From Bacilli bacterium (GTDB taxonomy: Bacteria; Bacillota_I; Bacilli_A; RF39; UBA660): a stretch of DNA of 59,878 nt. A program made the position numbers and the translations under genes. Below, piece after piece: positions 3,256 through 32,438 of the stretch. Position 1 is the first letter of the stretch, and each line of letters opens with the position of its first letter. A model generated the notes under the pieces. It was not told the DNA's origin. It was given only the letters and a program-made list of their open reading frames with translations, and did no database searches. The stretch lies in assembly GCA_051872655.1 (NCBI GenBank), contig JBJEEB010000005.1, forward strand, positions 1 to 59,878, in the 5' to 3' direction.

Positions 3256-3702
3256 CTAATTTTTTGAATCTTTTATTTTTCCACATATCCAATCAATAGA
3301 TACTTTATAGTATTTAGCAAACTCTATCAATGGATAAGTATGAATTAAAATTTTTCCCATTTCATATTTTGAATAATTAGATTGATCTACTTTAATTATT
3401 TCAGAAATTTTATCTTGGGTATCATTATTTTCCATTCTAATAGTCTTTAAATTGTTTCCTATAATTTTTTTATCAATATTATCGTTAATAGTATCATATT
3501 TCTTAATATTTGTAAGACCGCATATATAATCTAAACTAATGCCATAATAATTACAAAAATCATTTAATTTCGTCAATGGAATAATATCAATACCATTTTC
3601 CCAACCGGCATATGTTGATCTTGTTGTCTTTAAACTTTGGGCAACTTCTTTTTGTGTATTATCAAAGTATTCTCTAATCTCTTTCATTCTTTCATATATC
3701 AT
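3256..3702 (-). CDS. XRE-family regulator with two tandem HTH domains
   Basis: Two cHTH repeats (TQKEVAQSL..RSTYAGWENG; TQDKISEII..QSNYSKYEMG). Start moved to the ATG at 3702, which follows RBS gaggtgg. Confidence 0.85.
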   Translation of the reverse strand: MIYERMKEIREYFDNTQKEVAQSLKTTRSTYAGWENGIDIIPLTKLNDFCNYYGISLDYICGLTNIKKYDTINDNIDKKIIGNNLKTIRMENNDTQDKISEIIKVDQSNYSKYEMGKILIHTYPLIEFAKYYKVSIDWICGKIKDSKN

Positions 3703-3809
3703 AAGTACCACCTCATAATATAATTTTCTCAAATAAAAAAATAATATTAAAAAAGTGTCGGGACATTACCTAAAAATATGATATACTTATTAAGAAAGGA
3801 GCGATTATT

Positions 3810-4729: not shown

Positions 4730-4751
4730 AAACGCTTAATTTAAGTGTTGG

Positions 4752-4823
4752 CACAAATTGTACACAAAATGACATGAATTGGTCATGAATTGAGCTTGAC
4801 TTTGTCTTGTCAAGTGATATAAT
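4752..4823 (+). promoter_or_regulatory. sigmaA-like promoter P1 with upstream phased direct repeats and an overlapping inverted repeat
   Basis: TTGACT 4796-4801, extended -10 TGnTATAAT 4815-4823. cacaaa x2 and catgaattg x2, each with 11-bp period. cttgac...gtcaag IR over the -35. Confidence 0.7.
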
Positions 4824-4885
4824 GTAGTAAAATGAATTAATTATGCAAAGAGATTACTTTATTATTCATTTTTATAAAAAAATTA

Positions 4886-4914
4886 TTGACATATTTTCCT
4901 AAAAATATTAGAAT
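4886..4914 (+). promoter_or_regulatory. sigmaA-like promoter P2
   Basis: TTGACA-17 nt-TAGAAT. Confidence 0.7.
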
Positions 4915-4980
4915 AGGTAACAATTAGTTTAAAGTTATTGGTAGTTCTGCTATCTATAACGAATTTATATTTAATTTTTT

Positions 4981-5046
4981 AGGGTAGAAGAAGCAGTATC
5001 AATTTCTATTTTAAGATTAGTTACTGGATTTCTTCTCCCTTTTTTT
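4981..5046 (+). terminator. Long leader hairpin with U tract (terminator/attenuator or sRNA 3' end)
   Basis: agggtagaagaa...ttcttctccct arms with inner cagta/tactg pairing, then tttttt. Confidence 0.65.
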
Positions 5047-5065
5047 AGGGAATGAGGTTGACTGT

Positions 5066-5191
5066 ATGAATTACAATAAAATTGTTTATTCGTCTAAAAC
5101 TATATTTAGAAATTATGATTTTGGTGATAATTCACTTGTTTTAAATGCCTCTGAAAAAAATATGTTAAATCTTATTAAGAGAGAAAGTTAG
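5066..5191 (+). CDS. 41-aa upstream ORF (candidate leader peptide)
   Basis: RBS gagg; MNYNKIVYSSKTIFRNYDFGDNSLVLNASEKNMLNLIKRES. Its stop codon lies in the 5' arm of the 5177-5222 hairpin. Confidence 0.45.
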   Translation: MNYNKIVYSSKTIFRNYDFGDNSLVLNASEKNMLNLIKRES

Positions 5192-5222
5192 GGTTTTGCC
5201 CCAATTTTCTCTCTTTTATTTT
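5177..5222 (+). terminator. 17-bp hairpin with U-rich tail immediately before the RBS of the ArpU-like gene
   Basis: aagagagaaagttaggg-ttttg-ccccaattttctctctt; one mismatch, one G-U pair. Confidence 0.7.
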
Positions 5223-5230
5223 AGGAAAGG

Positions 5231-6787: not shown

Positions 6788-9520
6788 ATGAAAATTAATT
6801 TAAAGAAATGTGCATTAGTATTAGCACTAACAATTGGTGCGTTTATTGGTGTTCAAAATGTTCATGCAGCCACATTAACAATGGAAGATTCAGGTTATTT
6901 TTATGATAGAAATAATGCAAGTGGAAATGATAGACACTCATGGTATTGGAGATTATACACTGTAGATGGGCAAGTTGCATATTGTATTGAGCCAGGTACT
7001 CCAGAGGGGACTTCAATGATAGAAGGAAATTGGTCAAATACAGGTTTATCTGATTCAATAAAAGAAAGAATTACATTAATTGGATATTATGGTTATACTT
7101 ATCCAGGACATCAAACTTTAAAATATCGAGCAGCTACACAAGGAATGATTTGGCAAACAATTATAGGTAGTGGTTATGTAAATTTTTCTACTGAAAGATG
7201 GGGAGCAGGAACTCAATTAGATATATCAGCAGAAACTGCTGAAATTGAAAGATTAATAGCTACCCATTATACTAGACCAAGTTTTAATGGTGGAACATAT
7301 AGTTTACAAGTGGGAGAAACTATTACACTAACTGATACAAATAATGTACTAGGAAATTATGATATTTTAGTAAATGGTGCAGATTATAGTGTAAATGGAA
7401 ATAATTTAATTATAAAACCTACTACAAGTGGAACTATCACAGTAAATTTAAAAAAGAAAATGCCTTATTCATCAAATTATAAAATATTTTATGGAGATGG
7501 AGTTCAGAATATGTTTGTTGCAGGTTCGACTGATCCTGTTGTTAGTCAATTTAAAATAAATTCATATTATGGACAAGTTGAGATGAATAAAAAAGATGTT
7601 GAAACAGGTTCTACTGCTCAAGGACAAGCGACATTAAAGAATGCTATATATGGAGTATATAAAACTGATGGATCATTAGTAACAAAAATTACGACTGATG
7701 AAAATGGATATGCCATAAGTGATTCGGTATTAAGTTATGGAACATATTATTTACAAGAAATAAGTGCTAGTAATGGATATGAAATAAATAATGAAAAGAT
7801 TTTCTTTGATATTAAGGGAAAGAGTCTAGTTAAAGCCGAAGATTCAAAAGAAACAGTAGTAAAAAATTATATAAGTATATTGAAACAATATGATTTTGTA
7901 GATGGTAACACTACTTTTTTAAATGCTGAAAAAGGTATAAAATTTGAAATTTATTATCCGAATGGAGAAAAGTTTGATGAAATAATTACTGATAAAAATG
8001 GTTATGCAACTATTAATCTACCTTATGGAGTATGGAAATTTCATCAAGTAAATTCAACAACAGGATTTGAAAAAATTTATGATTTTTATATTACAGTTGA
8101 TTATAATTCAGAAAAAGAACAATATTATAATATTTTAAACAATGCTTTATCTGCTTATTTACAAGTTTTTAAAACTGATGTTGAAACAGGAAAAACAATT
8201 GCTTTTGCTGATACTACATTTAAAATCTATAACAAAGATACAAAACAATATGTATCTCAATATGTGGGTGGAAAAGTATATAGTGAATTTAAAACTGATA
8301 AAGATGGTAAATTTATAACTTATCTTAAATTAGTTGCAGGAAATTATACTTTATATGAAATATCTAGTCCAAAAGGTTATTTATTAGATGAAAAAGGGAT
8401 AGATTTTACTATTGGAAATGATACGCATTATTCATATACTACTTATGAACCATTTATTACAGTATACTTTAATAATAGTCCAATAAAAGGACAAATTGAA
8501 GTAATAAAGGATGGGGAAGTTTTCACAATAGAAGATGGAACTTTTAATTATAATGATAGAATTACATTAGAGGGTATTGTTTATAATATCTATGCTGATG
8601 AAGATATTAAATCATCAGATGGAACTCATATTTATTATAATAAAGGAGATTTAGTTGGAACAATTACTACTAATAAAGATGGATATGCTATAAGTGAGGA
8701 GTTACCATTAGGAAAATATAAAGTAGTAGAAGTAAGAACAAATGATGAATATTTACTTGATGAAACTGAATATTTTGTAGAGCTAATTGAAAAAGATAAT
8801 AAAACAGCAATTGTTTATAGTTCTATTAAAATGACTAATACTTTAAAAAAGGCAAAGGTGGAAATAACAAAGACTGATCTTATCAATGGAGATGTTATTC
8901 CTAATACAATTTTAGAAGTATATACTGAAAATGATGAATTGATTTTTACAGGAAAAACTGATAAAGAAGGTAAAATCATTATTGATGGATTGAAATTAGG
9001 TAAATATTATATTTTAGAGAAAGAGGCATCATTAGGTTATGTTATAACTAACGAAAAAATCTATTTTGAATTAAAAGATAATGGAGAAATAGTAAAAGCC
9101 GAAATGAAGAATAAACCTATAACATCAACAGTAGAAATAACAAAAATTGATGTTTCAAATAGTGAGCCATTACCTAATACTATTATTGAAGTTTACAATG
9201 ATAAAGATGAATTAATTTATAGTGGTAAAACAAATGAAGAAGGTAAAATTGTCATTGAAGAATTAAGGTATGGAAAATATTATTTTATAGAAAAAGAAGC
9301 ACCAGAGGGTTATCAGTTTAATAGTGAAAAAATGTATTTTGAAGTTCTTGAAGATGGAGAAATTATAAAATGCACTATGACAGATGAAAAAATTGTAATT
9401 GAAGTGCCTAATACTTTAAAAAATGATTATATACCATTTATCATGTTTGGAATGTCAGTTATAGGAATGGGAGCAGTTGCTTATGGATTCATCAAAAGTA
9501 AAAAAGCAAAGAAAAAATAA
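6788..9520 (+). CDS. Thioester-domain (TED) adhesin with SpaA/CnaB isopeptide repeats
   Basis: Signal peptide; YCIEPG and ATQGMIW thioester motifs; repeated G.Y...E..AP.GY CnaB motifs; VPNT sorting signal + TM + Lys tail. Confidence 0.85.
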   Translation: MKINLKKCALVLALTIGAFIGVQNVHAATLTMEDSGYFYDRNNASGNDRHSWYWRLYTVDGQVAYCIEPGTPEGTSMIEGNWSNTGLSDSIKERITLIGYYGYTYPGHQTLKYRAATQGMIWQTIIGSGYVNFSTERWGAGTQLDISAETAEIERLIATHYTRPSFNGGTYSLQVGETITLTDTNNVLGNYDILVNGADYSVNGNNLIIKPTTSGTITVNLKKKMPYSSNYKIFYGDGVQNMFVAGSTDPVVSQFKINSYYGQVEMNKKDVETGSTAQGQATLKNAIYGVYKTDGSLVTKITTDENGYAISDSVLSYGTYYLQEISASNGYEINNEKIFFDIKGKSLVKAEDSKETVVKNYISILKQYDFVDGNTTFLNAEKGIKFEIYYPNGEKFDEIITDKNGYATINLPYGVWKFHQVNSTTGFEKIYDFYITVDYNSEKEQYYNILNNALSAYLQVFKTDVETGKTIAFADTTFKIYNKDTKQYVSQYVGGKVYSEFKTDKDGKFITYLKLVAGNYTLYEISSPKGYLLDEKGIDFTIGNDTHYSYTTYEPFITVYFNNSPIKGQIEVIKDGEVFTIEDGTFNYNDRITLEGIVYNIYADEDIKSSDGTHIYYNKGDLVGTITTNKDGYAISEELPLGKYKVVEVRTNDEYLLDETEYFVELIEKDNKTAIVYSSIKMTNTLKKAKVEITKTDLINGDVIPNTILEVYTENDELIFTGKTDKEGKIIIDGLKLGKYYILEKEASLGYVITNEKIYFELKDNGEIVKAEMKNKPITSTVEITKIDVSNSEPLPNTIIEVYNDKDELIYSGKTNEEGKIVIEELRYGKYYFIEKEAPEGYQFNSEKMYFEVLEDGEIIKCTMTDEKIVIEVPNTLKNDYIPFIMFGMSVIGMGAVAYGFIKSKKAKKK

Positions 9521-10136
9521 AAGATACTCATTAATAATTTGTATGGGTATCTTTTTATTCTTTTTAAGTACATTATATTTTATTTATAATTACTGTCAAA
9601 ATAGAAAACAAGATATTCAAGAAAATCAAATGATAGAAGAATTTTTTGAAATTACAAATGAAGATGAAGAAGAAATAGTAATTGAAGAAAATGACAAGGA
9701 TCAAGAAATTGTTATTCAAAAGGAAACAGTTAATTATATGGCAATATTAGAAATACCTAAAATAAATTTAAAAATAGGACTATTTGATAAAAATAGTTCT
9801 AATAACAATGTGGATAAAAATATTTACATATTAAATGAAACTACTTTACCAGATGAGCAAATTAATAGTCATATTATTTTAGCTGCTCATTCTGGTAATA
9901 GTTATATATCATTTTTTAGAAACTTAAAAAAATTAGATATGAAAGACAAAGTTTATTTTTATTATAAAGGTGTTAAATATATCTACGAAGTATCTAATAA
10001 ATATGAAATTGAAAAAACAGGAACGACTGAATTAAAGCAAACTAATACATCTGATATTACACTTATTACTTGTATTAGTGGAACTAACAAACAAGTTGTT
10101 TATGTGGCAACATTGATAGATAAACAAAACTATTAA
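9477..10136 (+). CDS. Sortase
   Basis: N-terminal TM; ILEIPKINL, LAAHSG and TLITC catalytic motifs. Confidence 0.9.
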   Translation: MLMDSSKVKKQRKNKRYSLIICMGIFLFFLSTLYFIYNYCQNRKQDIQENQMIEEFFEITNEDEEEIVIEENDKDQEIVIQKETVNYMAILEIPKINLKIGLFDKNSSNNNVDKNIYILNETTLPDEQINSHIILAAHSGNSYISFFRNLKKLDMKDKVYFYYKGVKYIYEVSNKYEIEKTGTTELKQTNTSDITLITCISGTNKQVVYVATLIDKQNY

Positions 10137-10942: not shown

Positions 10943-11446
10943 ATGAAATATCAATATGAATTATTAAATTATTGGAATGACTCTGATGATTTATATGTTA
11001 ATTACATAGTAGAAGATTTAGAATCTCATAAGAAAGCAAATGTAATCAATTATTTTAATACTTCTGATATAGGTTGCAATTATAATACTGCATCAATAGA
11101 AGTAATAGAAAGTTCATTATATAAACTTATTAAAAAAAACAATGGTGTAGAATTTAATATGCCAAAGGTAAGTGAATTAAGCCCATTATTAAAATATGTA
11201 TATGACTGTGTATGTGATAGTGAATCAAATATGTGTCATATAGACTATAACGATTGGGAAGAATTAAAAGATTATAATGATTTTATCGAAGAAGATATTG
11301 CCACATTAAAGAAAGAAATTGATAAATATAATTTAGACGATTATATTACTATTGACGATGGAGAATATAAAATATGTGGTTATGGTGGATTACAATGTTG
11401 CTTTAATGATGATAGAGATAAAGGAAGTGATGAACTTGAAAGATGA
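10943..11446 (+). CDS. Acidic, Cys-rich hypothetical protein
   Basis: 167 aa; ends DELER. Confidence 0.7.
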   Translation: MKYQYELLNYWNDSDDLYVNYIVEDLESHKKANVINYFNTSDIGCNYNTASIEVIESSLYKLIKKNNGVEFNMPKVSELSPLLKYVYDCVCDSESNMCHIDYNDWEELKDYNDFIEEDIATLKKEIDKYNLDDYITIDDGEYKICGYGGLQCCFNDDRDKGSDELER

Positions 11447-12101
11447 ATTAAAAAAAGGTCAAGCATTCATAGGATTGGATGATAATAAATATTATTTTTT
11501 AGGATTTGATTATGATGACCAAATATTTTTCACAACATTGGATTTATGGAGTGATAAAGAACAGGGTTATATGTCAAAAAGTAATATATTTATAAAAGAA
11601 ATTTTAGATGAAAAATCTGATGTCATAGAAAATTGTACTTGGTATTATCAATCTATGAAAGAATTAGATAATTCATCTATGGAAGAAAAAATTAAAAGAT
11701 GTTTAGATATTATTAAAAATTCAAATACTAATGACTTTGAATTAAGACCTACTGAAATAGGTCCATTAGTTAGAGGACAAGCATATAGTAAGGAATTTAA
11801 TCAATATTATGAAGTTATTGGATTTATTGTTGATAATAATATTTATGTTGATGATAATTTAAAGTCGAAGCAAAAAGGATTTTTTGCAATATATCACTCA
11901 AATTGTGAAAGCACTGTACCATTAATATTTGAAAGAAATTTTAGTGATAAAGATAATTCTTTTGATGGTAAACATTTTGTTGCAGGTAATGATGATAGAG
12001 TTGATATAGAAGATATTATTTGTAATAAAGATTTAGTTGAATCTTATATGAATGATAATTTAATAGAAAGATTAGAAAATAATAAAGAAATGTCAAAATA
12101 A
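11430..12101 (+). CDS. Hypothetical protein
   Basis: Likely start is the ATG at 11430 after aagga, overlapping the previous stop (the ORF track starts at 11352). Confidence 0.65.
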   Translation: MNLKDELKKGQAFIGLDDNKYYFLGFDYDDQIFFTTLDLWSDKEQGYMSKSNIFIKEILDEKSDVIENCTWYYQSMKELDNSSMEEKIKRCLDIIKNSNTNDFELRPTEIGPLVRGQAYSKEFNQYYEVIGFIVDNNIYVDDNLKSKQKGFFAIYHSNCESTVPLIFERNFSDKDNSFDGKHFVAGNDDRVDIEDIICNKDLVESYMNDNLIERLENNKEMSK

Positions 12102-12131
12102 AAAATAACTGATGTTCTTTGAAAATTAGGT

Positions 12132-12245
12132 TAATAGCTACACATTCTAAAATGGTGTAGTGTTTATATTTTTAAAGGACAACTCTTTCTTGGAACTGTG
12201 TAGTTATTAATCAATGTTATTGATGATTACACAGTTCTTTTTTTT
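12132..12245 (+). promoter_or_regulatory. Attenuator-like leader: terminator 12193-12245 with an alternative antiterminator pairing
   Basis: gaactgtgta/tacacagttc stem + T8. taatagctacaca (12132-12144) is complementary to tgtgtagttatta (12197-12209) and its ctacac core also pairs with gtgtag (12155-12160). Confidence 0.7.
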
Positions 12246-12276
12246 ATGGCAAAAAACAAAAGAAAGGGTGAATATA

Positions 12277-12558
12277 ATGAAAAATTTATTTAATGTATTA
12301 GCAATACAACAATTAGAAGGTGGAACTTATACAGTGGATACAGTATTAAAGGTTATTAAACAAATAACTGATTGGGCATTGGCAGTTGGTATATCACTTG
12401 CAGGTGTTGCTCTTGTTATTAGTTTTATAATGTATGCAGTTGTAGATGTTGACCAAAAACCGAGAGTTAAAACAAGAATATTGCAAACACTACTTGGTAT
12501 ATTTGGAATTATTTTAGCAATTTCATTAGTTAATATTATAATTAGATTATTCACATAG
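12277..12558 (+). CDS. VirB2/TrbC-like pilin
   Basis: Start after RBS gaaagggtg; two hydrophobic helices; first gene of the T4SS block. Confidence 0.65.
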   Translation: MKNLFNVLAIQQLEGGTYTVDTVLKVIKQITDWALAVGISLAGVALVISFIMYAVVDVDQKPRVKTRILQTLLGIFGIILAISLVNIIIRLFT

Positions 12559-20556: not shown

Positions 20557-20576
20557 GTTTAAAAATGGAGGTTGAA

Positions 20577-22076
20577 ATGAAAAAAGTTTATATGTGTATA
20601 GATTTAAAAAGTTTTTATGCCTCTGTTGAATGTATTGAAAGAGGTTTAGATCCTTTAAATACTAATTTAGTGGTTGCAGATGAAAGTAGAACAGAAAAAA
20701 CTGTTTGTCTTGCAATAACACCAAGTTTAAAACAATATGGTCTAGGAGGTAGAGCAAGACTTTTTGAAGTCATTCAAAAAGTTAAAAGTATTAACTATGA
20801 AAGAAGAAAGAATAATAATTATAAAAAATTTAATTCGAAATCATTTTTTGATAGTGAACTAAAAAAAGATAGAACATTGGAATTAGATTTTATAATTGCT
20901 CCACCTCAAATGAAAAAATACATGAAATATAGTACCAATATTTATAAAATATATTTAAAATATTTAGCACCAGAAGATATTTTTGTTTATTCAATAGATG
21001 AAGTTTTTTGTGATATAACTACTTATTTAAGTATGTATCAGATGACAGCAAAAGAATTAGTTTCTAAAATAATAAAAGATGTTTATGATACAACTGGAAT
21101 AACTGCAACTGCCGGAATAGGAACTAATATGTATTTGGCAAAAGTATGTATGGACATAGTTGCTAAACATGCAGAACCTAATGAAATTGGTGTTAGAATT
21201 GCAGAACTAAACGAGATGTCATATAGAAAATTATTATGGAATCATAAGCCATTAACATCATTTTGGAGAGTTGGCAAAGGTATAGCAGATAAATTAGAAA
21301 AGAATGGATTATATACTATGGGAGATGTTGCAAGATGTTCTTTAAATAACGAAAATTTATTATATAAATTATTTGGAGTAAATGCAGAATTATTAATTGA
21401 TCATGCTTGGGGTTGGGAACCGACAACAATAAAAGAAGTTAAAGCATATAAACCCGAAAGAAATAGCATATCTTCTGGACAAGTTTTACATTGTCCATAT
21501 AAATATGAAAAAGCTAAATTAATTGTTAGAGAAATGATAGACTTATTATCATTAGATTTAACTGATAAGCATTTAGTTACAAAGCAATTAGTATTAGATA
21601 TAGGTTATGACATTGAAAATTTAAACAATCCTTTAATCAAAAAATTGTATAATGGAGAAATAACAATAGATAATTATGGAAGAGAAGTTCCTAAACATTC
21701 TCATGGAACGATAAATTTGGATTACAATACTTCTTCATCAAAAGTCCTATCAAAAAAATGTATTGAATTATATGATAGAATAGTAAATAAAAATTTATTA
21801 ATTAGAAAAATAAATATTACTGCTTGTAATATAATTGATGAAGATATAGTAAAAAAAGAAGTAGTCCATGAGCAATTAAATCTTTTTTCATCAAGTGATG
21901 ATTCTGAACAGGAAATTGAAGATAAAAAAAGACAAAAAGAAGATAATAAATTACAACATGTTTTATTAGATATTAAAAATAAATATGGAAAAAACTCTAT
22001 CTTAAAAGGTATGAACTTAGAAGAAGGTGGAACAACAATTGATAGAAATAATCAGGTTGGAGGTCATAAAGGATAA
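20577..22076 (+). CDS. Y-family DNA polymerase (UmuC/UvrX-like)
   Basis: CIDLKSFYASVEC, YSIDEVF, GIGTNMYLAK; start after RBS ggagg. Confidence 0.9.
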   Translation: MKKVYMCIDLKSFYASVECIERGLDPLNTNLVVADESRTEKTVCLAITPSLKQYGLGGRARLFEVIQKVKSINYERRKNNNYKKFNSKSFFDSELKKDRTLELDFIIAPPQMKKYMKYSTNIYKIYLKYLAPEDIFVYSIDEVFCDITTYLSMYQMTAKELVSKIIKDVYDTTGITATAGIGTNMYLAKVCMDIVAKHAEPNEIGVRIAELNEMSYRKLLWNHKPLTSFWRVGKGIADKLEKNGLYTMGDVARCSLNNENLLYKLFGVNAELLIDHAWGWEPTTIKEVKAYKPERNSISSGQVLHCPYKYEKAKLIVREMIDLLSLDLTDKHLVTKQLVLDIGYDIENLNNPLIKKLYNGEITIDNYGREVPKHSHGTINLDYNTSSSKVLSKKCIELYDRIVNKNLLIRKINITACNIIDEDIVKKEVVHEQLNLFSSSDDSEQEIEDKKRQKEDNKLQHVLLDIKNKYGKNSILKGMNLEEGGTTIDRNNQVGGHKG

Positions 22077-22483
22077 TGGATAAATATGACGATATAATTA
22101 ATCTTTCTCATTATGAGCCAAAATATCATCCTAGAATGAGTATGTATAAAAGGTCGGCACAATTCGCTCCTTTTTCAGCGTTAGTTGGGTATGATGAACA
22201 AGTTCGGGAATGTTCAAGATTAACCGACAAAAGATTGGAAATGGATGATGATTCAAAAGAAATAATAAATAATAAATTAAACAAGATAAATGAGTTTATA
22301 AAAAATAATCCAGAAGTAGAAATAACATATTTTATACCTGATGAAAAAAAAGCAGGTGGTAAATATGTTACTGAAAATGTAAATGTAAAAAGAATTGATT
22401 TTATAAATAGATTTATAAAACTTACTGATAATAAAAAAATAGTCTTAGATGACATTATAGAAATAAATATCAAAGATAAGTGA
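22076..22483 (+). CDS. YolD-like protein (UmuD-analogue partner)
   Basis: YDDIINL...HPRMS...RSAQFAPFSALVGY; coupled to the polymerase gene. Confidence 0.8.
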   Translation: MDKYDDIINLSHYEPKYHPRMSMYKRSAQFAPFSALVGYDEQVRECSRLTDKRLEMDDDSKEIINNKLNKINEFIKNNPEVEITYFIPDEKKAGGKYVTENVNVKRIDFINRFIKLTDNKKIVLDDIIEINIKDK

Positions 22484-22488
22484 ATTAA

Positions 22489-22512
22489 AATCGTAGAAAT
22501 ACGATTTTTTTT
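22489..22512 (+). terminator. Intrinsic terminator, identical to 33402-33425
   Basis: aatcgta-gaaa-tacgatt followed by a T tract. Confidence 0.8.
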
Positions 22513-22536
22513 AATACAAAGAAAGGAGAATTATTA

Positions 22537-22728
22537 ATGAAAGAAGAAGATGAAATAAAGATTTATCATAAAGTTTGTGATATTTCTAGGATATGTAAAA
22601 AATATTTTTACGAGAGAAAATATTTGCCAAGTTACGCTTGGTCAATGGATAAAGTTGTTGAATCTATTTATTCAACTTCAAAAGAATTAAAAAAGCAATA
22701 TGATGAATTAAAGAAAAATAATAAATAG
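22537..22728 (+). CDS. Small hypothetical protein
   Basis: Strong RBS aaggag; 63 aa. Confidence 0.6.
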   Translation: MKEEDEIKIYHKVCDISRICKKYFYERKYLPSYAWSMDKVVESIYSTSKELKKQYDELKKNNK

Positions 22729-22739
22729 GAGGTTTTAAA

Positions 22740-22868
22740 ATGTTATTGATTATATTTGGTGCAATAGGATTATTCTTATTGCTTTTTATTTATTCTGCTT
22801 GTGTTGTATCAAGTAGATGTTCAAGAATGGAGGAAAGCTATGAAAGAAAAATTAGTAAAAGAAATTAA
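22740..22868 (+). CDS. 42-aa single-TM peptide (not in the ORF track)
   Basis: RBS aggagg; MLLIIFGAIGLFLLLFIYSACVVSSRCSRMEESYERKISKRN. Confidence 0.55.
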   Translation: MLLIIFGAIGLFLLLFIYSACVVSSRCSRMEESYERKISKRN

Positions 22869-23103
22869 AAAGGAATTGGAAAAGTCTGATTATTTTTTTG
22901 ATGGTGAGATAGAACAAATAATAACTATCGTTAGAAAAGCATTAAATAAGTATATTCATGATGAAAAAATAATTAGCAGAAAAGATAAACTTTTAAAAGT
23001 GATAGAAAAATATTTAATAAAGATAAGAGTAATTATAAAAAGAATATCTTTTAAAAAAAGATCAGTAGAGGAGGAAAACGATGAACACATTAGAAATGTA
23101 TAA
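22840..23103 (+). CDS. Basic hypothetical protein
   Basis: Likely start ATG at 22840 after ggagg. Confidence 0.55.
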   Translation: MKEKLVKEIKKELEKSDYFFDGEIEQIITIVRKALNKYIHDEKIISRKDKLLKVIEKYLIKIRVIIKRISFKKRSVEEENDEHIRNV

Positions 23104-23419
23104 AAGATTATCAGATGAGGATAAATCTCATTTAACAGTGTATTGTATTTACGATAGCATTTACGATGTTGCAAGAAATAATAATATAGAAATTAGTGAT
23201 GAACTTGCTATGAATATTCAAGAACTTGCTCATGATTTGTATCTTGAAGATGAATATATGAATTTATCTGCATCACAAATTGCTTTCTTTTTAACAGAGT
23301 GTTATACAAAAGATAATACATTTATGGATAAAGTAGAAGATATGGATTACGATGACATATTACAAGCAGTTGAAGATAATAATCATGAATTTTATATTGA
23401 AGAAGAAATGGAAAGGTAG
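23081..23419 (+). CDS. Highly acidic small protein (DNA-mimic candidate)
   Basis: About 29 D/E vs 7 K/R in 112 aa; ends EEEMER. Confidence 0.7.
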   Translation: MNTLEMYKRLSDEDKSHLTVYCIYDSIYDVARNNNIEISDELAMNIQELAHDLYLEDEYMNLSASQIAFFLTECYTKDNTFMDKVEDMDYDDILQAVEDNNHEFYIEEEMER

Positions 23420-23429
23420 GTAATAAATT

Positions 23430-23705
23430 ATGGATTTTACAAAGTTAAATGTTGAGTTTGCTAATATGCAAAATACTATTACTAAGTATAATAATATTTT
23501 GAATGAAATAAAGAATAGAATTAAAAACAATTTAAGAGATATTAGTAAATATGAAACAAAAATAAAAAATACAAAGAATAATTTAGAAAAAGAGAGTTAT
23601 AAAATACTAGTTATTTCATTAAAAAATGAAACTTCATTTTTAGAAAATATTATAAAGGAGGATGAACAAAATGAACGAGAAACAGGGGTTACTAAAACAG
23701 TATAA
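23430..23705 (+). CDS. Coiled-coil hypothetical protein
   Basis: Heptad-like pattern, 91 aa. Confidence 0.6.
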   Translation: MDFTKLNVEFANMQNTITKYNNILNEIKNRIKNNLRDISKYETKIKNTKNNLEKESYKILVISLKNETSFLENIIKEDEQNERETGVTKTV

Positions 23706-24069
23706 TGAAGAAGAAATTAAGCAATTACTTAAAGATAAAGTAAAAATGGTTTATATTGATAATGGAAGTGAAGAATTTGTAGCAAGATATGATGATTTAC
23801 CAGACATTATCGTAGATGTAAACGAAAAACTTGGACATACTGAAAATTTAAAGGTATATGATTTTGAAAATCCAATTGCATATAAACCGATTTTAACAAC
23901 AATAGGTTATTTTTTAGATAAATGTGATCCAGAGATAAGAAAAGATATAATAGATAGATTAGTTGGATTACAAAAAGGAGAAATTGAAGTAAAAGATTAT
24001 AAGGTAATTGATGAAGATATGTTAGATGATGTAAGAATTGCTATGGAAAAAGAAGAAATGGATAGATAA
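23662..24069 (+). CDS. Acidic hypothetical protein
   Basis: RBS ggagg upstream; ends KEEMDR. Confidence 0.65.
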   Translation: MNKMNEKQGLLKQYNEEEIKQLLKDKVKMVYIDNGSEEFVARYDDLPDIIVDVNEKLGHTENLKVYDFENPIAYKPILTTIGYFLDKCDPEIRKDIIDRLVGLQKGEIEVKDYKVIDEDMLDDVRIAMEKEEMDR

Positions 24070-24071
24070 TT

Positions 24072-26045
24072 ATGTCAATGATATATATAGTTATTTTAGT
24101 TTTAGTGGCTTTAATAATTATATTTTTGTATTTTATTGAGCCACTAATAACTAGGCAAAAAATAAAAGATAATAATGAGCATGGTAGTGCAAGATGGGCT
24201 ACTAAACAAGAAATAGAAAAGCATTTTAGAAAAGAGCAAATAAGTCATATTGTAAAAAGTGGATTTCCTGTATATTATTCAAAGGATAATAGATATGTAT
24301 GGTTTGATATGGAAACACCACATTGGATTTATTTAGGTTCCACAGGAAGTGGCAAAAGCGCTACTGCAGTAATTCCTGAATGTAGCTTTATTGCTACTGC
24401 TGAAAATAAAAAAAGTGTTTTTATTACAGATCCAAAAGGAGAAATATTTTCTACAACAAGTAAAATGTTTAAAGACAATGGTTATCATGTGTTTACATTG
24501 GATTTTAGAAATCCAGAATTTTCTAATCATGCTAATTTATTAGAAACTGCAATTAATGAATATGAATTGTATGATAAAAATGAGAAATTGAGTGAACAGG
24601 AAAACGATGAGAAATTAAAAATTAAGTATAAAAATGAATCAATAACACATTTTGCACAATGTAATCAAATAGTAAATGATATATGTACTATGATTATGTC
24701 AGATAAAACTGCAAAAGAGGCATTTTGGAATAATAGTGCAAGTGATTTGTTATATGGAATCATTTTTTTATTTTTGGAAGATTATGCTGATGGAAAAATT
24801 AAAAGAGAACAAATTACTTTAACTTCAATGAAAAAATTTCAAAATAGTTCAATGACTGAAAAGAATATTAAAGTATTAAGAAAATATGTGGAGGCAAAAC
24901 CTTATGGTTATAGAAGTAAAGATAAATTAATACCAATTATATCTACTAGTGAAAATACATATAAGAGTATTACTTCAATTTTTAATGAAAGAATGACTTT
25001 ATTTGATGATGTAAATGTAGAAAATATAACATCAAATTCAGATTTTGATTTTGATATTTTAGGAAAAGAGCCATCGGTGTTATATTGTTGCATACCTGAT
25101 GAATCAAAAATATATTATACACTCGTATCGGTAGTAGTTTCCTTAGTATATAAAAGATTAGTATTATTATGTAATATGCAACCAAATAAAAAACTACCTA
25201 CTGAACTTGTATTTTTACTTGACGAGTTTGCAAATACTCCACCACTACAAGACATTGAAACGATAGTATCAGTAGCTAGAAGTAGAGGTATGTATTTTCA
25301 ATTCTTTTTACAAAGTTTTGCCCAACTAGATAATTTGTATGGTAAGGAAGTTAGTCAAATAATTCAAGATAACTGTGGTTTGGCTTATCTTAAAACAAAT
25401 ACACAAGAAACTGCGGAAGCAATTAGTTCTAGATTAGGTACTCATGGAGTTGAGACTACTTCATTAAATTATTCAATGAGTTTTTTAAATAATAATGGTA
25501 GTAAGGGAACAAGTCTTATTTCTAGAAGATTATTAACTGCTGATGAAATTAAACAATTACATTACAAGACAATTATCTTTCCAACAATAGGTTACCCAAT
25601 TTTTCGTGATACTGTTATTTATCAAAAATTTAGTTGTTATAAAAAAGGTTATGTTGAAAGAAATATAAGACCACTTGAAAGATTAGTTGATACTTACTAT
25701 ACAGTAGAACAGTTGAAGTTTGAAGATAAAAATAGTAATCAAGAGCCAAAACTAAATACTTATGAATCACAAATGAAAACAAGGTTAGTATCCATTATAA
25801 ATGAAGTAATAAAAATATTTGGGAAAATAGATTTTAATGTAGAATATACAAAAGAAAATAATAATATAATTGCAGAGTTATATTTAGCACCACCATTATC
25901 AATCAATGATTTAAAAGGACTTGAAGAATTAAGTAGTAAATTAGATTTTGGATATAATGCCATATCTGATAAAGAAAAAGTTAATAGAAAAAATAGAAAC
26001 TCTTTAATAGAGATTTTTTTAAATGATAGAGAAAAAGAAATGTGA
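24072..26045 (+). CDS. virD4: VirD4/TraG type IV coupling protein
   Basis: N-terminal TM, HGSARWA, Walker A GSTGSGKS, DPKGE, LLDEFAN, ARSRG. Confidence 0.9.
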   Translation: MSMIYIVILVLVALIIIFLYFIEPLITRQKIKDNNEHGSARWATKQEIEKHFRKEQISHIVKSGFPVYYSKDNRYVWFDMETPHWIYLGSTGSGKSATAVIPECSFIATAENKKSVFITDPKGEIFSTTSKMFKDNGYHVFTLDFRNPEFSNHANLLETAINEYELYDKNEKLSEQENDEKLKIKYKNESITHFAQCNQIVNDICTMIMSDKTAKEAFWNNSASDLLYGIIFLFLEDYADGKIKREQITLTSMKKFQNSSMTEKNIKVLRKYVEAKPYGYRSKDKLIPIISTSENTYKSITSIFNERMTLFDDVNVENITSNSDFDFDILGKEPSVLYCCIPDESKIYYTLVSVVVSLVYKRLVLLCNMQPNKKLPTELVFLLDEFANTPPLQDIETIVSVARSRGMYFQFFLQSFAQLDNLYGKEVSQIIQDNCGLAYLKTNTQETAEAISSRLGTHGVETTSLNYSMSFLNNNGSKGTSLISRRLLTADEIKQLHYKTIIFPTIGYPIFRDTVIYQKFSCYKKGYVERNIRPLERLVDTYYTVEQLKFEDKNSNQEPKLNTYESQMKTRLVSIINEVIKIFGKIDFNVEYTKENNNIIAELYLAPPLSINDLKGLEELSSKLDFGYNAISDKEKVNRKNRNSLIEIFLNDREKEM

Positions 26046-26060
26046 AAGAAGGTGTAAAAA

Positions 26061-29000
26061 GTGAATAACAAATTTATAAATGAATACTTTGAAACAAGAG
26101 ATAATACTTTACGAGATATACAAAGTAGTTCATATAATTGGAATAAGTTTATTACTTATTGGTCAAAAATATTAGATAAATATAGCGTTGATAATGTTTT
26201 AAATCTGTATTCTTATAATTCAAGTGGAAGAACTTTTATGACTTTTGATGAATGGAATAGCGAAGAAGTTGATAGAAGAATAAAACCTAAAAGTAAAGGA
26301 ATACCAATAATTGAAGATGATCATAAAATATATGTATTTGATATTAGACAAACTTATGGAAAAGATTATAAGCTATGGAATTATAATCATTATGTAGATA
26401 AGTCAATACTTAATTATTATCAATTTAGTGTTGACATTATAAATGATGATAATAAAACAATAAATGAAAATTTTTATGATACCTTCTATGAAATATCGTT
26501 AAAACAAATAATGAATAATTATATGACTATGTCAGAAGAAGAAGTGGAGTTTGTTGCTAAAACAATGACTTCACTTTTTTTATCAAAGTCTAACTTTAAT
26601 ATATATAATCTTCCGAATTCTTATGAAATGTTAGAAGAAATGGATACAGATGATATTTTAAAATGTATGCAAATTGCTAATAAGGAAACTGCAATTATAT
26701 ATAAAGATTTTGTAGAAAAAACAAATAGTCTTGAATCAGTTCAAAATTATATTCAAAGTAATGTATTATTTCAGTTTAAAGATGGTAAATATTTTAATGA
26801 AGAAGAAAAACAAAACTTTTTATCTGGTATAGAAAATAATACTTTCTTTAACAATAAATTTTTAGAAAATATTTATGATAGTTATGTTAATAAGTATGAA
26901 CATTCATTTAAAAGAAAAGTTGATAAAGTTGAAAATATTATTAGTTTTGATAAAGATAAAGTTTATATAAATAATGAAGAAGTTAGTGAAGAAGAATTTG
27001 ATAATGCATTTGAAGAAATTGAAGAAGAACATTTTAATAATGAAAATAATCTAAATGTTATAAATAAAAATAACTATGTAGAACAAATGTCTCTATTTGC
27101 CCCAAGAGAAGAAGAACTAGCAAGTAAGATTTGCGATATATTTAATTCTTTTGACACTAAATATCAAAATACATTTGAAGTACATAATGTTGAATTACAA
27201 AGATGGGAACATATATCAAGTAAAAAAAGAAATCTTACAATATTATTAAAAAGTTCATTAATAGATAGTTTAGCAGATAGAGAAAATAGTTTTACATATT
27301 TTAATACTGATAAAACTGATGAAAAGAAACTTAATGAGGGATTATTAAATAATGCTTTTATTCAGTCATTATATAAAGATAAAGATTTTTCAATTTCTTT
27401 TACACCAGATATGATACATATATATTGGCATAACTTTGATGACAAGCAATTTGATATGTCTATTCCAAGTACTAAATTAATAAATCAAGATGAAATAGAT
27501 AGTAAAGAATTAGAACAAATAGATAAAGAAGTTTCTAATATTACTGATGATGTAATTGATTATAAAGTAACTACTGCTGAAATAATACCAACTCGTAATG
27601 GTATAGAAACTAATGTTATAGAAGAACATAGTTATAACAGTAATGGAGAAGAAGTAAAAGAAAAATATCCACCAATTAATTATCATATTAGTGATGATAA
27701 AATTGATACAAGTTTTGGTGCTAAATCAAGATTTGAAGATAATATAAAAGCAATAGAACTCTTAAAAAAATTAGAAAATGAAGATAGAAATGCAACCGAA
27801 GAAGAACAAGAAATTTTATCTCGTTATGTAGGTTGGGGTGGAATTGCTGATGCTTTTGATGAAAGAAAAGAAAATTGGAAAGAGGAAAGAGAGAAATTAA
27901 AATTACTCTTAAATGAAGAAGAATATAAAGCAGCTGCACATTCAACATTATCTTCTTTTTATACTCCAAATATAGCAATAGATGGGATTTATAAAGCATT
28001 AAAACAATTTGGATTTGAAAAAGGAAATGTTTTAGAGCCAAGTTGTGGTATTGGTAATTTTTTTGGAAGACTTCCTAGTGAGTTTGATAAATCTAAATTA
28101 TATGGTGTCGAGTTAGATAGTATAAGTGGAAGAATTGCTAAAAAACTTTATCCAAATGCTAAAATAGAAATAACAGGTTATGAAGATTCAAAGGTTGCAG
28201 ATAATTTATTTGATATTGCAATTGGTAATGTACCTTTTGGAAGTAATACTGTATATGATAAAAGATATAAAGATAGATTTTTAATTCATGATTACTTTTT
28301 TCAAAAAACATTAGATAAAGTAAGAGATGGAGGAATTATTGCTTTTATTACTACTGATGGGACACTTGATAAGAAAGATACAAGAGTAAGAGAATACATT
28401 GCAAAAAGAGCAGAATTTTTAGGAGCAATAAGATTACCTAACAATACATTTACAGGAAACGCAAATGCCAAAGTTACATCTGATATTATTTTTTTGAAAA
28501 AGAGAGATGAATTAAAGTTAGATATAAGTGATGAAAGTTGGATATATACGAGTGAATATGATGATGGAATTACAATAAACAATTATTATATTGATAATCC
28601 AAATATGATGCTTGGTAAAATGGAAACAACAACTCATTTTGATATGGCGACTTGTATTCCATTTGAAGATAGAGATATAAATGTTTTAATGAATCAAGCA
28701 ATAGAACATCTACCAACTAATATATATGAGCAAAGTAGTTTTATAGAAAATAATGATACTAATTATGAAGTATTAGATGCAGATGATAGTCTTAAAAATA
28801 ATGCTTTTACTGTAATAAATAAAGATGGTAAAGACATTATTTATCAAAGGTCATTTTCAAGTTTAGTACCATACAGTATTCAAGATGGCATGACTGCTAA
28901 AAGAATTATTGGTTTGTGTAAAATTAAAGATGCTTTAAGAGAAGTATTTAATATACAACTTCGAGATGGAAGTGATGAAGAATTAAAATTTGCACAAGAA

Positions 29001-32000
29001 ACATTAAGTAAAGAATATGATGATTTCAATAAAAGATATGGTTATATTAATGATAGTGTAAATGCACGAGCATTTGATAGTGATCCAGATTATTATTTGC
29101 TTACTTCTATTGAAAATAAAATTAGTAAGGATGAAGAAGATGATAAACCTAAATATGAAAAGGGAGATGTCTTTACTAAAAGGACAATAAGAAAAAGCAA
29201 AACTATTACAAGTGCTGAAAACGCTGAACAAGCATTAAGGTATTCTCTTAATAATCGTGGTTGTGTTGATTTTGAATATATGAAAACATTATATCCAAAA
29301 GAAGATAATGAAATTATAGAGGAGTTAGATAATTTAATATATCAAGATCCAGCAAAGATAAATGATTTTAATAATGGATGGGTAATTGCTAGTGAATATT
29401 TAAGTGGTAATGTAAAGCAAAAACTTAATTATGCTAAATCAGTAAATGAAGATAATAAGTTTGATAAAAATATTGAGGCATTAGAAAAAGTACAACCTAT
29501 ACCACTTGAATATGATGAAATTAGTGTAAAATTAGGTTCAACTTGGATTCCAGAAGATGTCTATCATGAGTTTTGTTGCGAACTTTTAGATATACCAAAA
29601 TATAATAGAAGTTATTTGAAAATAAAATATGCAAAAGAAGTAAATACTTGGTTATTTCAAGCAAGTGGATTATATGGTTATGGTGTAAAAAATACTAATA
29701 CTTGGGGAACTGATAGAGCAGATGCTTTATCAATAATAAAGAATACTCTTAATCTTCAAAGTATAACTATTTATGACAAATTAGAAGATGAAAGACGAGT
29801 TGTAAATCCAATTGAAACTGCTAATGCAAGAGAAAAACAAGAGGCAATAAAACAAGAATTTAAAGAGTGGATTTGGAAAGATGAAGATAGAAGAAATAGA
29901 CTTGTTAAACTATATAATGAAAATTTTAATTGCATGAGAGAAAGGGAATTTGATGGAAGTCATTTAACATTCGATGGAATGAATCCCAATATAGAATTAC
30001 GACCTCATCAAAAAGATGCAGTAGCAAGAGTTTTGTATGGAGGTAATACATTACTTGCTCATGCTGTTGGTGCAGGAAAAACTTATGAATGTATTGCAAG
30101 TGCTATGGAATTGAAAAGATTGGGAATTGTAAGTAAGCCAATGTTTGTTGTCCCTAATCATTTATTAGGACAATGGGCAAATGAAGTTTTAAAATTGTAT
30201 CCTACTGCAAATATTTTAGTAGCAACTCAAAAAGATTTTGAAAAAACTAGAAGAAAAAAACTAATGGCAAGAATTGCAACAGGAGAATGGGATGCAGTTT
30301 TAATTGCTCATTCTAGTTTTGGTTTAATTCCAATGAGTAAAGAATATGAAAAGAAACATATTGAAAAAGAAATAGAAGAAGTTGTTAGTGCCATTGAAAG
30401 AATAAAAGCAGAATCAGGTGATGGTTTAAGTGTAAAGAAACTTGAACAAATAAAAACGAGTATGGATACTAAATTAAAAGTATTATTAGATGCACCGAAA
30501 GATGATGTTGTTACATTTGAAGAATTGGGAGTAGATGAACTAATAGTAGATGAGGCACATATGTTTAAAAATCTTCCAATGTTTTCAAAAATAAGAAATG
30601 TTGCAGGTATAAATAACAGTGAATCTAAAAAAGCAACTGACTTGTTTATGAAGATAAGTTACATATTAGAAAATAATGGTGGTAAAGGTGCAGTATTTGC
30701 AACAGGTACTCCAATTTCAAACTCTATGGGAGAATTATTTGCAATGCAAAAATATCTTCAAATTGATAGATTAAGAGAAATGGGATTAGAACATTTTGAT
30801 GAGTGGGCTTCAACATTTGGAGAAGTAGTTAATAGTTTTGAAATTGCACCAGACGGTAGTGGTTTTAGAACAAAAGCAAGATTTGCTCAATTTTTTAATA
30901 TTCCTGAACTTATGACTTTATTTAAAGAAGTAGCTGATATTAAAACATCAAAAATGTTGGATTTACCTGTTCCTAAATTAAAAGGTGGAGATTATAAAAC
31001 AATAGTTGCTCCTAAAAGTGTTGAATTAGGAGAATATGTAGATAAACTTGCTGAAAGAAGTGAAATAATTAGAAATGGTTGTGATCCACGAATTGATAAT
31101 ATGCTTTTAGTAACAAACGATGGAAGAAAAGCAGCACTCGATTTAAGAATGATAGATCCGAATATGCCAGACTTACCTAATTCAAAAATTAATTTAGCAG
31201 TAGAAAATATTTATAGAATATGGTTAGAAAATAAAGAGGACAAGTTAACGCAACTTGTCTTTTGTGATTTATCAACACCAAAGAATGATGGTACTTTCAA
31301 TGTATATGATGACATTAAGAATAAGTTAATTCAAAAAGGAATACCAGAAGATGAAATAGAATTTATTCATAATGCAAAAACTAATCCTCAAAAATTAAAA
31401 TTATTTGAAGATATGAGAAATGGAAATAAAAGAATTTTAATAGGTTCAACTTCTAAAATGGGAGCCGGAATGAATGTTCAAGATAAATTAATTGCTCTCC
31501 ATCATCTTGACTGTCCATGGCGACCAAGTGATATTGAACAAAGAGAAGGAAGAATTTTAAGACAGGGAAATCAAAATGAAGAAGTAGAAATATATAGATA
31601 TGTAACCGAAGGTAGTTTTGATGCCTATTCATATCAATTAATTCAAACAAAATCAACTTTTATAAATCAAATAATGGCAAACTCAAATGGTGGTGGAAGA
31701 ACTGCTGAAGATTTGGATAGAGATACACTTACTTATGCAGAAGTTAAAGCACTTGCAAGTGGTAATCCATTGATATTAGAAAAATTTAAAGTTGAAAATG
31801 AATTAAAACAATTATATTTATCAAAAAGTAGATATGATAGATCACATATTGAACTAGAATCAAAATATAACAGAGAATTGCCAAGACAATTAAAATATCA
31901 AAAACAATATTTAACAGGTTTAGAAGAAGATATCAAAAAAGTGGAAGATTTATCTGCTGATAATTTTAAGATAATTATAAGAGATCAATTTTTTAATTCT

Positions 32001-32438
32001 AGAAAAGATGCTAGTACAAAATTTTACCAATCGTTATCTTTATTAAAGACAGGAGAAGAAATCAAAATAGGAGAGATAAGTGGATTTGATATAATTGGTA
32101 CACGAGAAGAACTAAGGTTTACTCCTGTTGTTTATATTAAGGGTATTGGTAAATATAAGGTTGAAATAAACAACATGGATGAAATAGGTAATATTTTAAA
32201 ATTAGAAAATATGCTCAAAAGTTTTGATAATAAAATAAATACTGTTAAAGAGCAAATCGCCTATACTGAAAAACAACTTGTAGATGTAAAGGAAGAACTA
32301 GATAAGCCATTTGCAAGTCAAGAAAGAATACGAGAATTACAAAAAGAAAAAGCACGAATTGATAGTGAGCTTGATTTAGATAAACAAGAAAACACAAGAG
32401 AAATAGAAGAAAATAATGAAGAAGAAATAGAAAGATAA
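26061..32438 (+). CDS. DarB-like ArdC-N / N6-adenine methyltransferase / SNF2 helicase fusion
   Basis: N-terminal YSxxNxL...TFDEW...R.IK.KSKGI.I (ArdC-N-like); [11 protein letters not shown] and GNVPF MTase motifs; [13 protein letters not shown] and [11 protein letters not shown] helicase motifs. Confidence 0.9.

Follow-up and report, generated by a model that had tools for sequence, protein, structure and literature searches.

A conserved leader with the layout of a three-state transcription attenuator before the pilin gene of a putative integrative conjugative element from a Bacilli bacterium

The window, which is the whole 59,878-nt stretch of DNA that was analysed, has a G+C content of 23-29%, and its first ~35 kb look like an integrative conjugative element (ICE). 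A repressor-like gene lies on the - strand, and nearly all of the remaining element genes are on the + strand, including those for an SSB, a T4SS block, an M23 peptidase, and a VirD4-type coupling protein. The genes that frame the element and the leader considered here are the following:

3256-3732, - strand: HTH_3 repressor-like gene
11427-12101, + strand: upstream ORF of ~224 aa from the ORF list, without a family match, with its TAA stop at 12099-12101
12277-12558, + strand: T4SS pilin-like gene, 93 aa, with weak PF18895 and Mbov_0395-family matches
33709-35451: serine recombinase, followed by two tRNAs and host genes

The pilin-like gene matches PF18895 (T4SS_pilin) at E=1.5e-4 and the Mbov_0395 family at E=2.4e-3, both under the cut-off. 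It opens a block of pilin, VirB6-like, VirB3-like, and VirB4 genes that ends at 16761; the gene next to it encodes a pLS20_p028/Mbov_0396-like transmembrane protein, and those for the VirB3-like protein and the VirB4 ATPase follow. These T4SS assignments appear reasonable, and the matches behind them are weak; the VirB4 relatives that were found are distant (~25% identity) and belong to Spiroplasma/Mbov_0397-type elements, and PLSDB held no related plasmid DNA. The upstream ORF, which has no Pfam or NCBIfam match, is conserved at this place 5' of the pilin gene across most loci in the close group (pilin identity of at least 76%), whether or not the leader is present.

Cargo or accessory genes of the element lie within 6788-10136 and 20565-32438. 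They include genes for a surface adhesin with a thioester domain and SpaA repeats, with its own sortase alongside, and for a Y-family DNA polymerase with a YolD-like partner; a gene for an SNF2-helicase protein of 2125 aa adjoins that of the coupling protein.

A 500-nt non-coding stretch at 4730-5230 contains the element's two best sigma-70-like promoters, TTGACT-16-TGaTATAAT (4796-4823) and TTGACA-17-TAGAAT (4886-4914). Two long hairpins with T runs lie 3' of both, at 4981-5040 (-18.8 kcal/mol) and 5177-5215 (-20.6 kcal/mol), the latter immediately 5' of the Shine-Dalgarno (SD) sequence of a 161-aa ORF without a family match. This stretch looks like the main conjugation promoter with a long structured leader, and its position is that at which pLS20 carries its attenuator; no upstream complement was found for the 5' arm of either hairpin.

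The leader considered here lies ~7.4 kb 3' of these likely main promoters (4796-4914), between an internal ORF and the pilin gene. Its features, in order, are as follows:

12113-12126, + strand: 5' strand of the outer stem of hairpin P1, holding the near-invariant GTTCTTTGAAAA (12114-12125)
12129-12144, + strand: M1, the antiterminator strand, whose partner is the M2 core at 12197-12212
12155-12160, + strand: gtgtag, 3' strand of the inner hairpin, which sequesters the M1 core ctacac (12138-12143)
12168-12181, + strand: 3' strand of the P1 outer stem (14 bp with 12113-12126)
12182-12191, + strand: pyrimidine tract ACUCUUUCUU, which can pair with the SD region 12260-12269 (10 bp; MFE of 12100-12280)
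12192-12238, + strand: intrinsic terminator (5' arm 12192-12211, loop 12212-12218, 3' arm 12219-12238)
12238-12245, + strand: U8 tract of the terminator (T-tract columns 0.96 conserved)
12260-12271, + strand: extended SD sequence AAGAAAGGGTGA of the pilin gene (columns invariant or nearly so)

The initial annotation placed the terminator arms gaactgtgta and tacacagttc at 12193-12202 and 12228-12237 and the T8 run at 12238-12245, and all of these coordinates are right. By terminator scan and folding, the complete stem has 20 bp and a 7-nt loop (-22.8 kcal/mol), and the pilin ATG (12277) follows 31 nt 3' of the T run. The surrounding 181-nt region (12100-12280) folds with an MFE z of -7.3. The heptamer GTTCTTT occurs twice in the leader, at 12114-12120, where the invariant P1 5' strand starts, and at 12234-12240, where the 3' arm runs into the T tract. 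A separate promoter between 12245 and 12277, which the initial annotation named as something that would make a switch irrelevant, left no signal: there is no promoter-like site, nor room for one, from the T run to the pilin ATG.

Homologues of the pilin, 217 in all, were found in metagenomes of human, pig, goat, rabbit, mouse, and chicken guts, from sources annotated at most as uncultured Bacilli. Gut metagenomes yielded 26 distinct homologous leaders, which form alignment A3; alignment A2 contains 21 leaders. A pattern scan of metagenomes returned at least seven real leaders among the matches listed, most of which are chance matches, and two scans of viral contigs returned no real leader. Metatranscriptome contigs from four runs, which are unstranded and carry no 3'-end information, cover both flanks at low depth and leave 12147-12257 uncovered; with the L021 leader as query, only trace RNA runs were found.

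Terminator pairing is kept at 96.5% in the 26 leaders of A3, with three pairs altered on both sides, and 0-1 of 500 shuffles are equally good. Compensatory change is seen as GAACUG/CAGUUC becoming GAAUUG/CAAUUC in L177 and AAAUUG/CAAUUU in L368. The G-U pairs of the stem are valid solely in the + strand transcript, and variable columns are transition-only in 10 of 11 cases in the 3' arm vs 6 of 59 in spacers and loops. The alignment thus indicates that the intrinsic terminator before the pilin gene is real.

M1 is complementary to 12197-12212, the loop-proximal part of the terminator 5' arm. The initial annotation reported 13 bp with one G-U between taatagctacaca (12132-12144) and tgtgtagttatta (12197-12209), which holds; the real helix has 16 bp, including two G-U pairs (duplex -18.9 kcal/mol), and in the RNAfold structure it continues to 12150 with 12190. 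The observed helix is reached by none of 5000 dinucleotide-shuffled versions of the upstream 90 nt and by none of 2632 real 90-nt windows (mean best score 7 vs 15); among six intergenic terminator-like hairpins in the window, this one alone has an upstream complement of such quality. Complementarity of M1 by chance is therefore excluded.

Across the 26 leaders the antiterminator helix is 96.9% paired (416 cells), vs 25-52% with the partner shifted by 1-3 columns. In seven pairs one side alone varies, always through wobble-compatible transitions, and one terminal pair changes in a compensatory manner from G-C to A-U in three sequences. All five variable M1 columns are transition-only, and the variation is almost entirely A/G opposite U. 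The shuffle control for this helix is modest (21 of 500 as good), mismatches occur in four leaders (C.A in L348, A.C in L360 and L362, U.U in L028), and no compensatory double change lies inside the core in the 26 leaders. Covariation, which the initial annotation proposed as a check, amounts to three compensatory pairs in the terminator and to just the one terminal pair in the antiterminator. Compared with diverged relatives, identity is 0.69-1.0 for M1, 0.92-1.0 for the P1 5' strand, and 0.76-1.0 for the terminator 5' arm with M2 (0.90-1.0 when L015 is set aside); in the same comparison it is 0.61-0.75 at flanking third codon positions and 0.19-0.61 in inter-helix segments.

Exchange of A and G opposite U is neutral only for pairing in + strand RNA, which speaks against both a DNA site and selection for a structure in an antisense transcript. 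The region could nonetheless be imagined as a DNA-level element, either an oriT-like inverted repeat or an operator in which a protein binds three copies of a 13-16 bp motif; three such copies (M1 and M3 direct, M2 inverted) do lie in a conjugative element, and GTTCTTTGAA is a near-palindrome. We consider this very improbable, since pairing is kept via G-U wobble that only + strand RNA allows, the distance between the hairpin arms varies from 3 to ~17 nt among relatives, a T run and then an SD sequence always stand 3' of the hairpin, and the window contains no further copy of the motif.

A comparison of the upstream region across 76 species-level genome loci found the full leader in 19, in diverged lineages whose flanking proteins are 70-99% identical. 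Some ten others, class C, L027/29, and L033 among them, have the homologous hairpin without M1, and in one of these ten, L036, the terminator arms are M1 and M2 with no M3; these hairpins without M1, together with the L036 arrangement, imply that arms have been gained and lost. Other loci lack an intergenic region, so that the SD sequence comes straight after the stop codon, and the two most abundant pilin variants are of this kind. Further lineages carry unrelated plain terminators at the same spot. In L025 (2840-3000) there is a natural deletion in which GTTCTTTGAAAATTAGATTAATAA is kept and everything from the M1 core to the T run is gone, joining it directly to the SD region. A distant pilin family (L042-L070, 58-66% identity; for example L049:2870-3000) has a conserved composite hairpin, GCAAAGAAAAAGAGTTA...TAACTC...TTCTTTGC plus a T run, which is unrelated in sequence and occupies the same place before the pilin SD. 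In L385-L390 (L385:1-400), the pilin/T4SS block lies directly 3' of a host rpoA-like gene, with nothing but an ORF of 59 aa and a plain terminator (GGTTCTAAGAATTAGTCTTAGAA and its T run) in between; this junction may be an element boundary with an insulating terminator.

From this distribution, a terminator just before the pilin gene appears to be a recurrent feature of the element family and the M1/P1 leader an optional addition in several diverged lineages. Since relatives manage with a plain terminator or no intergenic region, a switch would be dispensable, and the leader family looks like a tunable brake on T4SS expression, not an essential element.

The same distribution bears on the simplest alternative, that the hairpin is a plain intrinsic terminator, which marks an operon boundary, insulates, or stops a fixed part of transcription, with M1 as the inert relic of a duplicated hairpin arm and the T4SS genes expressed via leak-through or general processive antitermination. 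The homologous hairpins without M1, the L036 arms, and the unrelated terminators of other lineages are what this explanation expects, the terminators that lack M1 having no upstream complement beyond chance; so is the zero count of compensatory changes in the antiterminator core, and terminators are common inside Gram-positive conjugation operons (PMC8955417; Tn916, PMC11658703). An inert relic, however, would not be expected to remain complementary in 26 leaders despite ~35% difference at flanking third positions and 40-80% between the helices, to vary in all five of its variable columns by A/G opposite U, as a true 3' arm does and spacers do not, or to match exactly the loop-proximal part of the 5' arm; and ConAn1 (PF17362) was not found among the scanned ORFs. 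On balance a plain terminator is an unlikely explanation.

M1 in turn is locked inside P1, a 69-nt hairpin (12113-12181, -20 kcal/mol) that begins 12 nt 3' of the TAA stop (12099-12101) of the upstream ORF. Its inner part is the ctacac/gtgtag hairpin (-7.3 kcal/mol), which the initial annotation identified correctly (12138-12143 with 12155-12160) while missing the 14-bp outer stem. In homologues the gtgtag pairing is kept at just 73.5%. The P1 3' strand is present in 15 of the 21 leaders of A2, where the outer stem is 90.7% paired and changes are one-sided only, and missing in 10 of the 26 leaders of A3. In L368 the 3' strand has four changes, all wobble-compatible, and the inner partner is a different sequence, GCUAUU, that sequesters the 5' half of M1; all three states are kept. 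The layout of anti-antiterminator, antiterminator, and terminator 5' of the pilin, VirB6-like, VirB3-like, and VirB4 genes, as first proposed for this locus, is conserved in the 26 leaders, with variation compatible with pairing.

The two strands of P1 differ in conservation. The 5' strand has a major-allele frequency of 0.97, vs 0.86 for its partner, and its motif is kept in eight of the ten leaders that lack the partner strand (L360 and L362 are without it); the loops and the 3' strand vary freely. In all leader variants the stop codon of the upstream ORF lies 10-16 nt 5' of GTTCTTTG. Because GUUCUUUGAAAA is conserved beyond its partner strand, and kept where that strand is gone, pairing alone is insufficient as the cause, which suggests that the invariant strand is a candidate site for a sequence-specific bound factor. 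Elsewhere in the window this motif has no repeat and no complement above chance, and copies of the M1-type motif elsewhere in the element are chance-level matches alone.

The initial annotation also raised an undescribed riboswitch, in which P1 would be the metabolite-binding aptamer. An expression platform of antiterminator plus terminator does resemble that of many riboswitches, and the GUUCUUUGAAAA strand is strongly conserved; but P1 is a single hairpin with no multi-helix junction, its loops and 3' strand are free to vary, and 10 of 26 leaders lack that strand altogether. In Rfam, the whole window gives two tRNAs alone at gathering score, and 12000-12350 matches no family to E<=10, with just sub-threshold miRNA-like hairpin noise. 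We therefore give a riboswitch almost no credence.

The pyrimidine tract between P1 and the terminator is a possible anti-SD sequence, by which the pilin SD would be occluded (by 12182-12191) in read-through transcripts that refold into the terminator. Its SD-pairing partner occurs mainly in window-like leaders and is absent in class B; anti-SD pairing was rejected as a conserved feature, being confined to window-like leaders and since a purine-rich SD sequence will pair trivially with any U run.

Folding of transcripts as they grow, a check that the initial annotation suggested, yields P1, then the antiterminator, then P1 with the terminator. As long as the transcript ends no later than 12192, it folds into P1 (-20.8 kcal/mol); for those ending at 12205-12228 the MFE structure is the M1:M2 antiterminator (-28.8 to -30 kcal/mol); and for the complete transcript it is P1 plus terminator (-43.8 kcal/mol). 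In each of the 21 A2 leaders, a transcript truncated ahead of the 3' arm has the antiterminator as its MFE structure, with 13 of 13 M1:M2 core pairs in 20 of them and 12 of 13 in L028. At equilibrium the terminator state is ~15 kcal/mol more stable. Direct-path estimates put the barrier from P1 to the antiterminator at ~17 kcal/mol in the window leader, at 15-21 kcal/mol in leaders with a full P1 (10.9 in L007 and 12.6 in L018, where P1 is weaker), and at 7-11 kcal/mol in those without the P1 3' strand.

These data are best accommodated by a cis-acting three-state transcription attenuator that acts in the + strand transcript of a long conjugation operon of the ICE, which we regard as a fairly likely reading. 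P1 (12113-12181) would form first on the emerging RNA and bury M1 (12129-12144); the 20-bp terminator with its U8 tract would then form, and transcription would stop 31 nt before the pilin start. If P1 were prevented, M1 would pair with 12197-12212, leaving no toehold for the 3' arm, and RNA polymerase would read into the pilin, VirB6-like, VirB3-like, and VirB4 genes. With P1 formed and a barrier of ~17 kcal/mol, the terminator should win; with P1 open, the competition is only between the -7.3 kcal/mol inner hairpin and the -18.9 kcal/mol duplex. Because the predicted barrier is 15-21 kcal/mol, termination would be the default of window-type leaders, and the window leader is probably off unless an input intervenes; for variants that lack the P1 3' strand, the predicted default is read-through. 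What is observed is that the three helices exist, exclude one another, arise in this order in silico, and are conserved in 26 leaders; conservation, pairing-compatible variation, and folding support the mutually exclusive antiterminator and its lock well, with no strong covariation in the core; control of mating-pore expression by the attenuator is what we infer from these observations.

Read-through would need an input that holds the P1 5' strand single-stranded, the likeliest candidate being a protein or RNA with affinity for the near-invariant GUUCUUUGAAAA. That a trans-acting factor (an RNA-binding protein or small RNA, encoded by the element or the host) recognises GUUCUUUGAAAA as it emerges from RNA polymerase is put forward tentatively. 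No leader-specific regulator gene neighbours the leader within 3 kb, local gene content being alike with and without it; no ConAn1 (PF17362) was detected at E<=0.01 among 38 scanned element ORFs of at least 60 aa; and no PyrR, TRAP, RAT, or ANTAR motif was recognisable by eye. A leader peptide, the mini-ORF ATG TTC TTT GAA AAT TAG (12111-12128), was rejected, its start being AAG in four leaders and lengths and frames differing. Opening of P1 by ribosomes seems unlikely, as a ribosome terminating at the stop 10-16 nt upstream would barely reach the first base pairs. The conserved TTGAAA was also considered by eye as a promoter -35 and has no -10 at the proper distance.

A more specific proposal for the input is a countertranscript, as in attenuators of the pT181, pIP501, and pCF10 IRS1/Anti-Q type, whereby an antisense RNA binds nascent M1/P1 and favours the terminator. 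The 1:2 / 2:3 / 3:4 layout of the leader is that of such systems (PMC3181467), and antisense control is also weighed by the pLS20 authors (PMC13401043). On the - strand there is a promoter-like site, TTGCCA-18-TGtAATCAT, from 12252 to 12223, and, by eye, a T-rich run stands 3' of the P1 complement. The site scores 9/12, however, such sites are not enriched over shuffles, and by eye its -35 is not conserved in other leader classes; the G-U pairs of the helices would, moreover, become A.C mismatches in an antisense transcript. We judge a countertranscript improbable.

Were a trans-acting factor at GUUCUUUGAAAA to keep P1 open, it would license the mating-pore genes separately from those for the adhesin, sortase, and SSB upstream, and the ICE operon would contain an antitermination checkpoint of local action that is new for Gram-positive bacteria. 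Uncultured low-GC gut Bacilli carry conjugative elements that are abundant in human and livestock microbiomes, and to our knowledge nothing is known of how transfer of these elements is switched on. The placement of a conserved brake ahead of the pilin and pore genes suggests that, once the element has been induced, a further checkpoint precedes the costly assembly of the secretion machine, in parallel with the attenuators of pLS20 and pCF10. The natural series of full leader, leader without P1, plain terminator, and none provides ready-made variants for tests of attenuator tuning, and the invariant 12-nt strand is a handle for finding the effector.

Several known leaders follow the same logic. 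The trp, pyr/PyrR, and bgl/LicT RAT leaders are built of an anti-antiterminator, an antiterminator, and a terminator, and those of pT181 and pIP501 are countertranscript-controlled attenuators with a four-segment layout. As in the trp, pyr/PyrR, and bgl/LicT RAT leaders, the antiterminator described here overlaps the terminator 5' arm; unlike them, the present leader has no conserved leader peptide and is operon-internal. The pCF10 conjugation operon is subject to antisense-driven attenuation through IRS1/Anti-Q (PMC3181467), and the leader of its prgQ likewise has four segments with mutually exclusive pre-emptor and terminator helices that gate a Gram-positive conjugation operon; pCF10-type systems, however, have a demonstrated antisense promoter and RNA, whereas here there is a weak, non-conserved - strand site alone.

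Internal terminators combined with processive antitermination are established in conjugation operons of Gram-positive bacteria (conAn, PMC8191782; Tn916 canT, PMC11658703; reviewed in PMC8955417); the ConAn1 family corresponds to Pfam pXO2-34, PF17362 (definition from PMC8191782). TerR of pLS20, a long-stem terminator of 15 bp where the Bacillus mean is 9 +/- 2 bp, resists conAn processive antitermination (PMC10325885). The present terminator is similar in its long stem (20 bp here vs 15 bp), its 7-nt loop, and its conjugation operon, but TerR stands at an operon end, whereas this one precedes essential T4SS genes and has a dedicated antiterminator strand; a stem exceeding the 15 bp of TerR would fit the idea that polymerase can pass only with a dedicated local antiterminator.

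The closest precedent is cATT of Bacillus subtilis plasmid pLS20, a zipper-type attenuator described in 2026 and predicted on hundreds of plasmids, for which an RNA-binding protein or antisense RNA is proposed as the trigger (PMC13401043). Both have an intrinsic terminator right before the SD sequence of a conjugation gene and a complementary upstream strand, in both a more stable upstream stem-loop favours termination (by prediction in the present leader), and in both the highest conservation falls on one strand of that stem-loop. The differences are several. The two have no sequence relationship, and no ConAn1 was detected in the present element; cATTpLS20 lies in the 5' leader of the first operon gene, conAn1, whereas the present leader is internal, before the pilin gene. 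The long central stem-loop of cATTpLS20 persists in both conformations and is lengthened when the upstream stem-loop strand pairs with the terminator 5' stem, whereas the present leader is without one, the 52-nt segment between M1 and M2 folding at only -6.2 kcal/mol and contributing to P1 when the terminator is formed. The hairpin that sequesters M1 has it as its 5' strand, a role held by the 3' strand in cATTpLS20, and the default of cATTpLS20 is antitermination, whereas that of the present leader is predicted to be termination. The initial annotation's description of the switch as undescribed thus stands for the sequence family and falls for the principle, as attenuators gating Gram-positive conjugation operons are known (PMC3181467, PMC13401043). 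Judged by its sequence, the leader seems similar in principle to the pCF10 and pLS20 attenuators, without the defining features of the zipper type; attenuation of conjugation operons was already known, and what is new here is the operon-internal position, the different topology, and the probable default off state.
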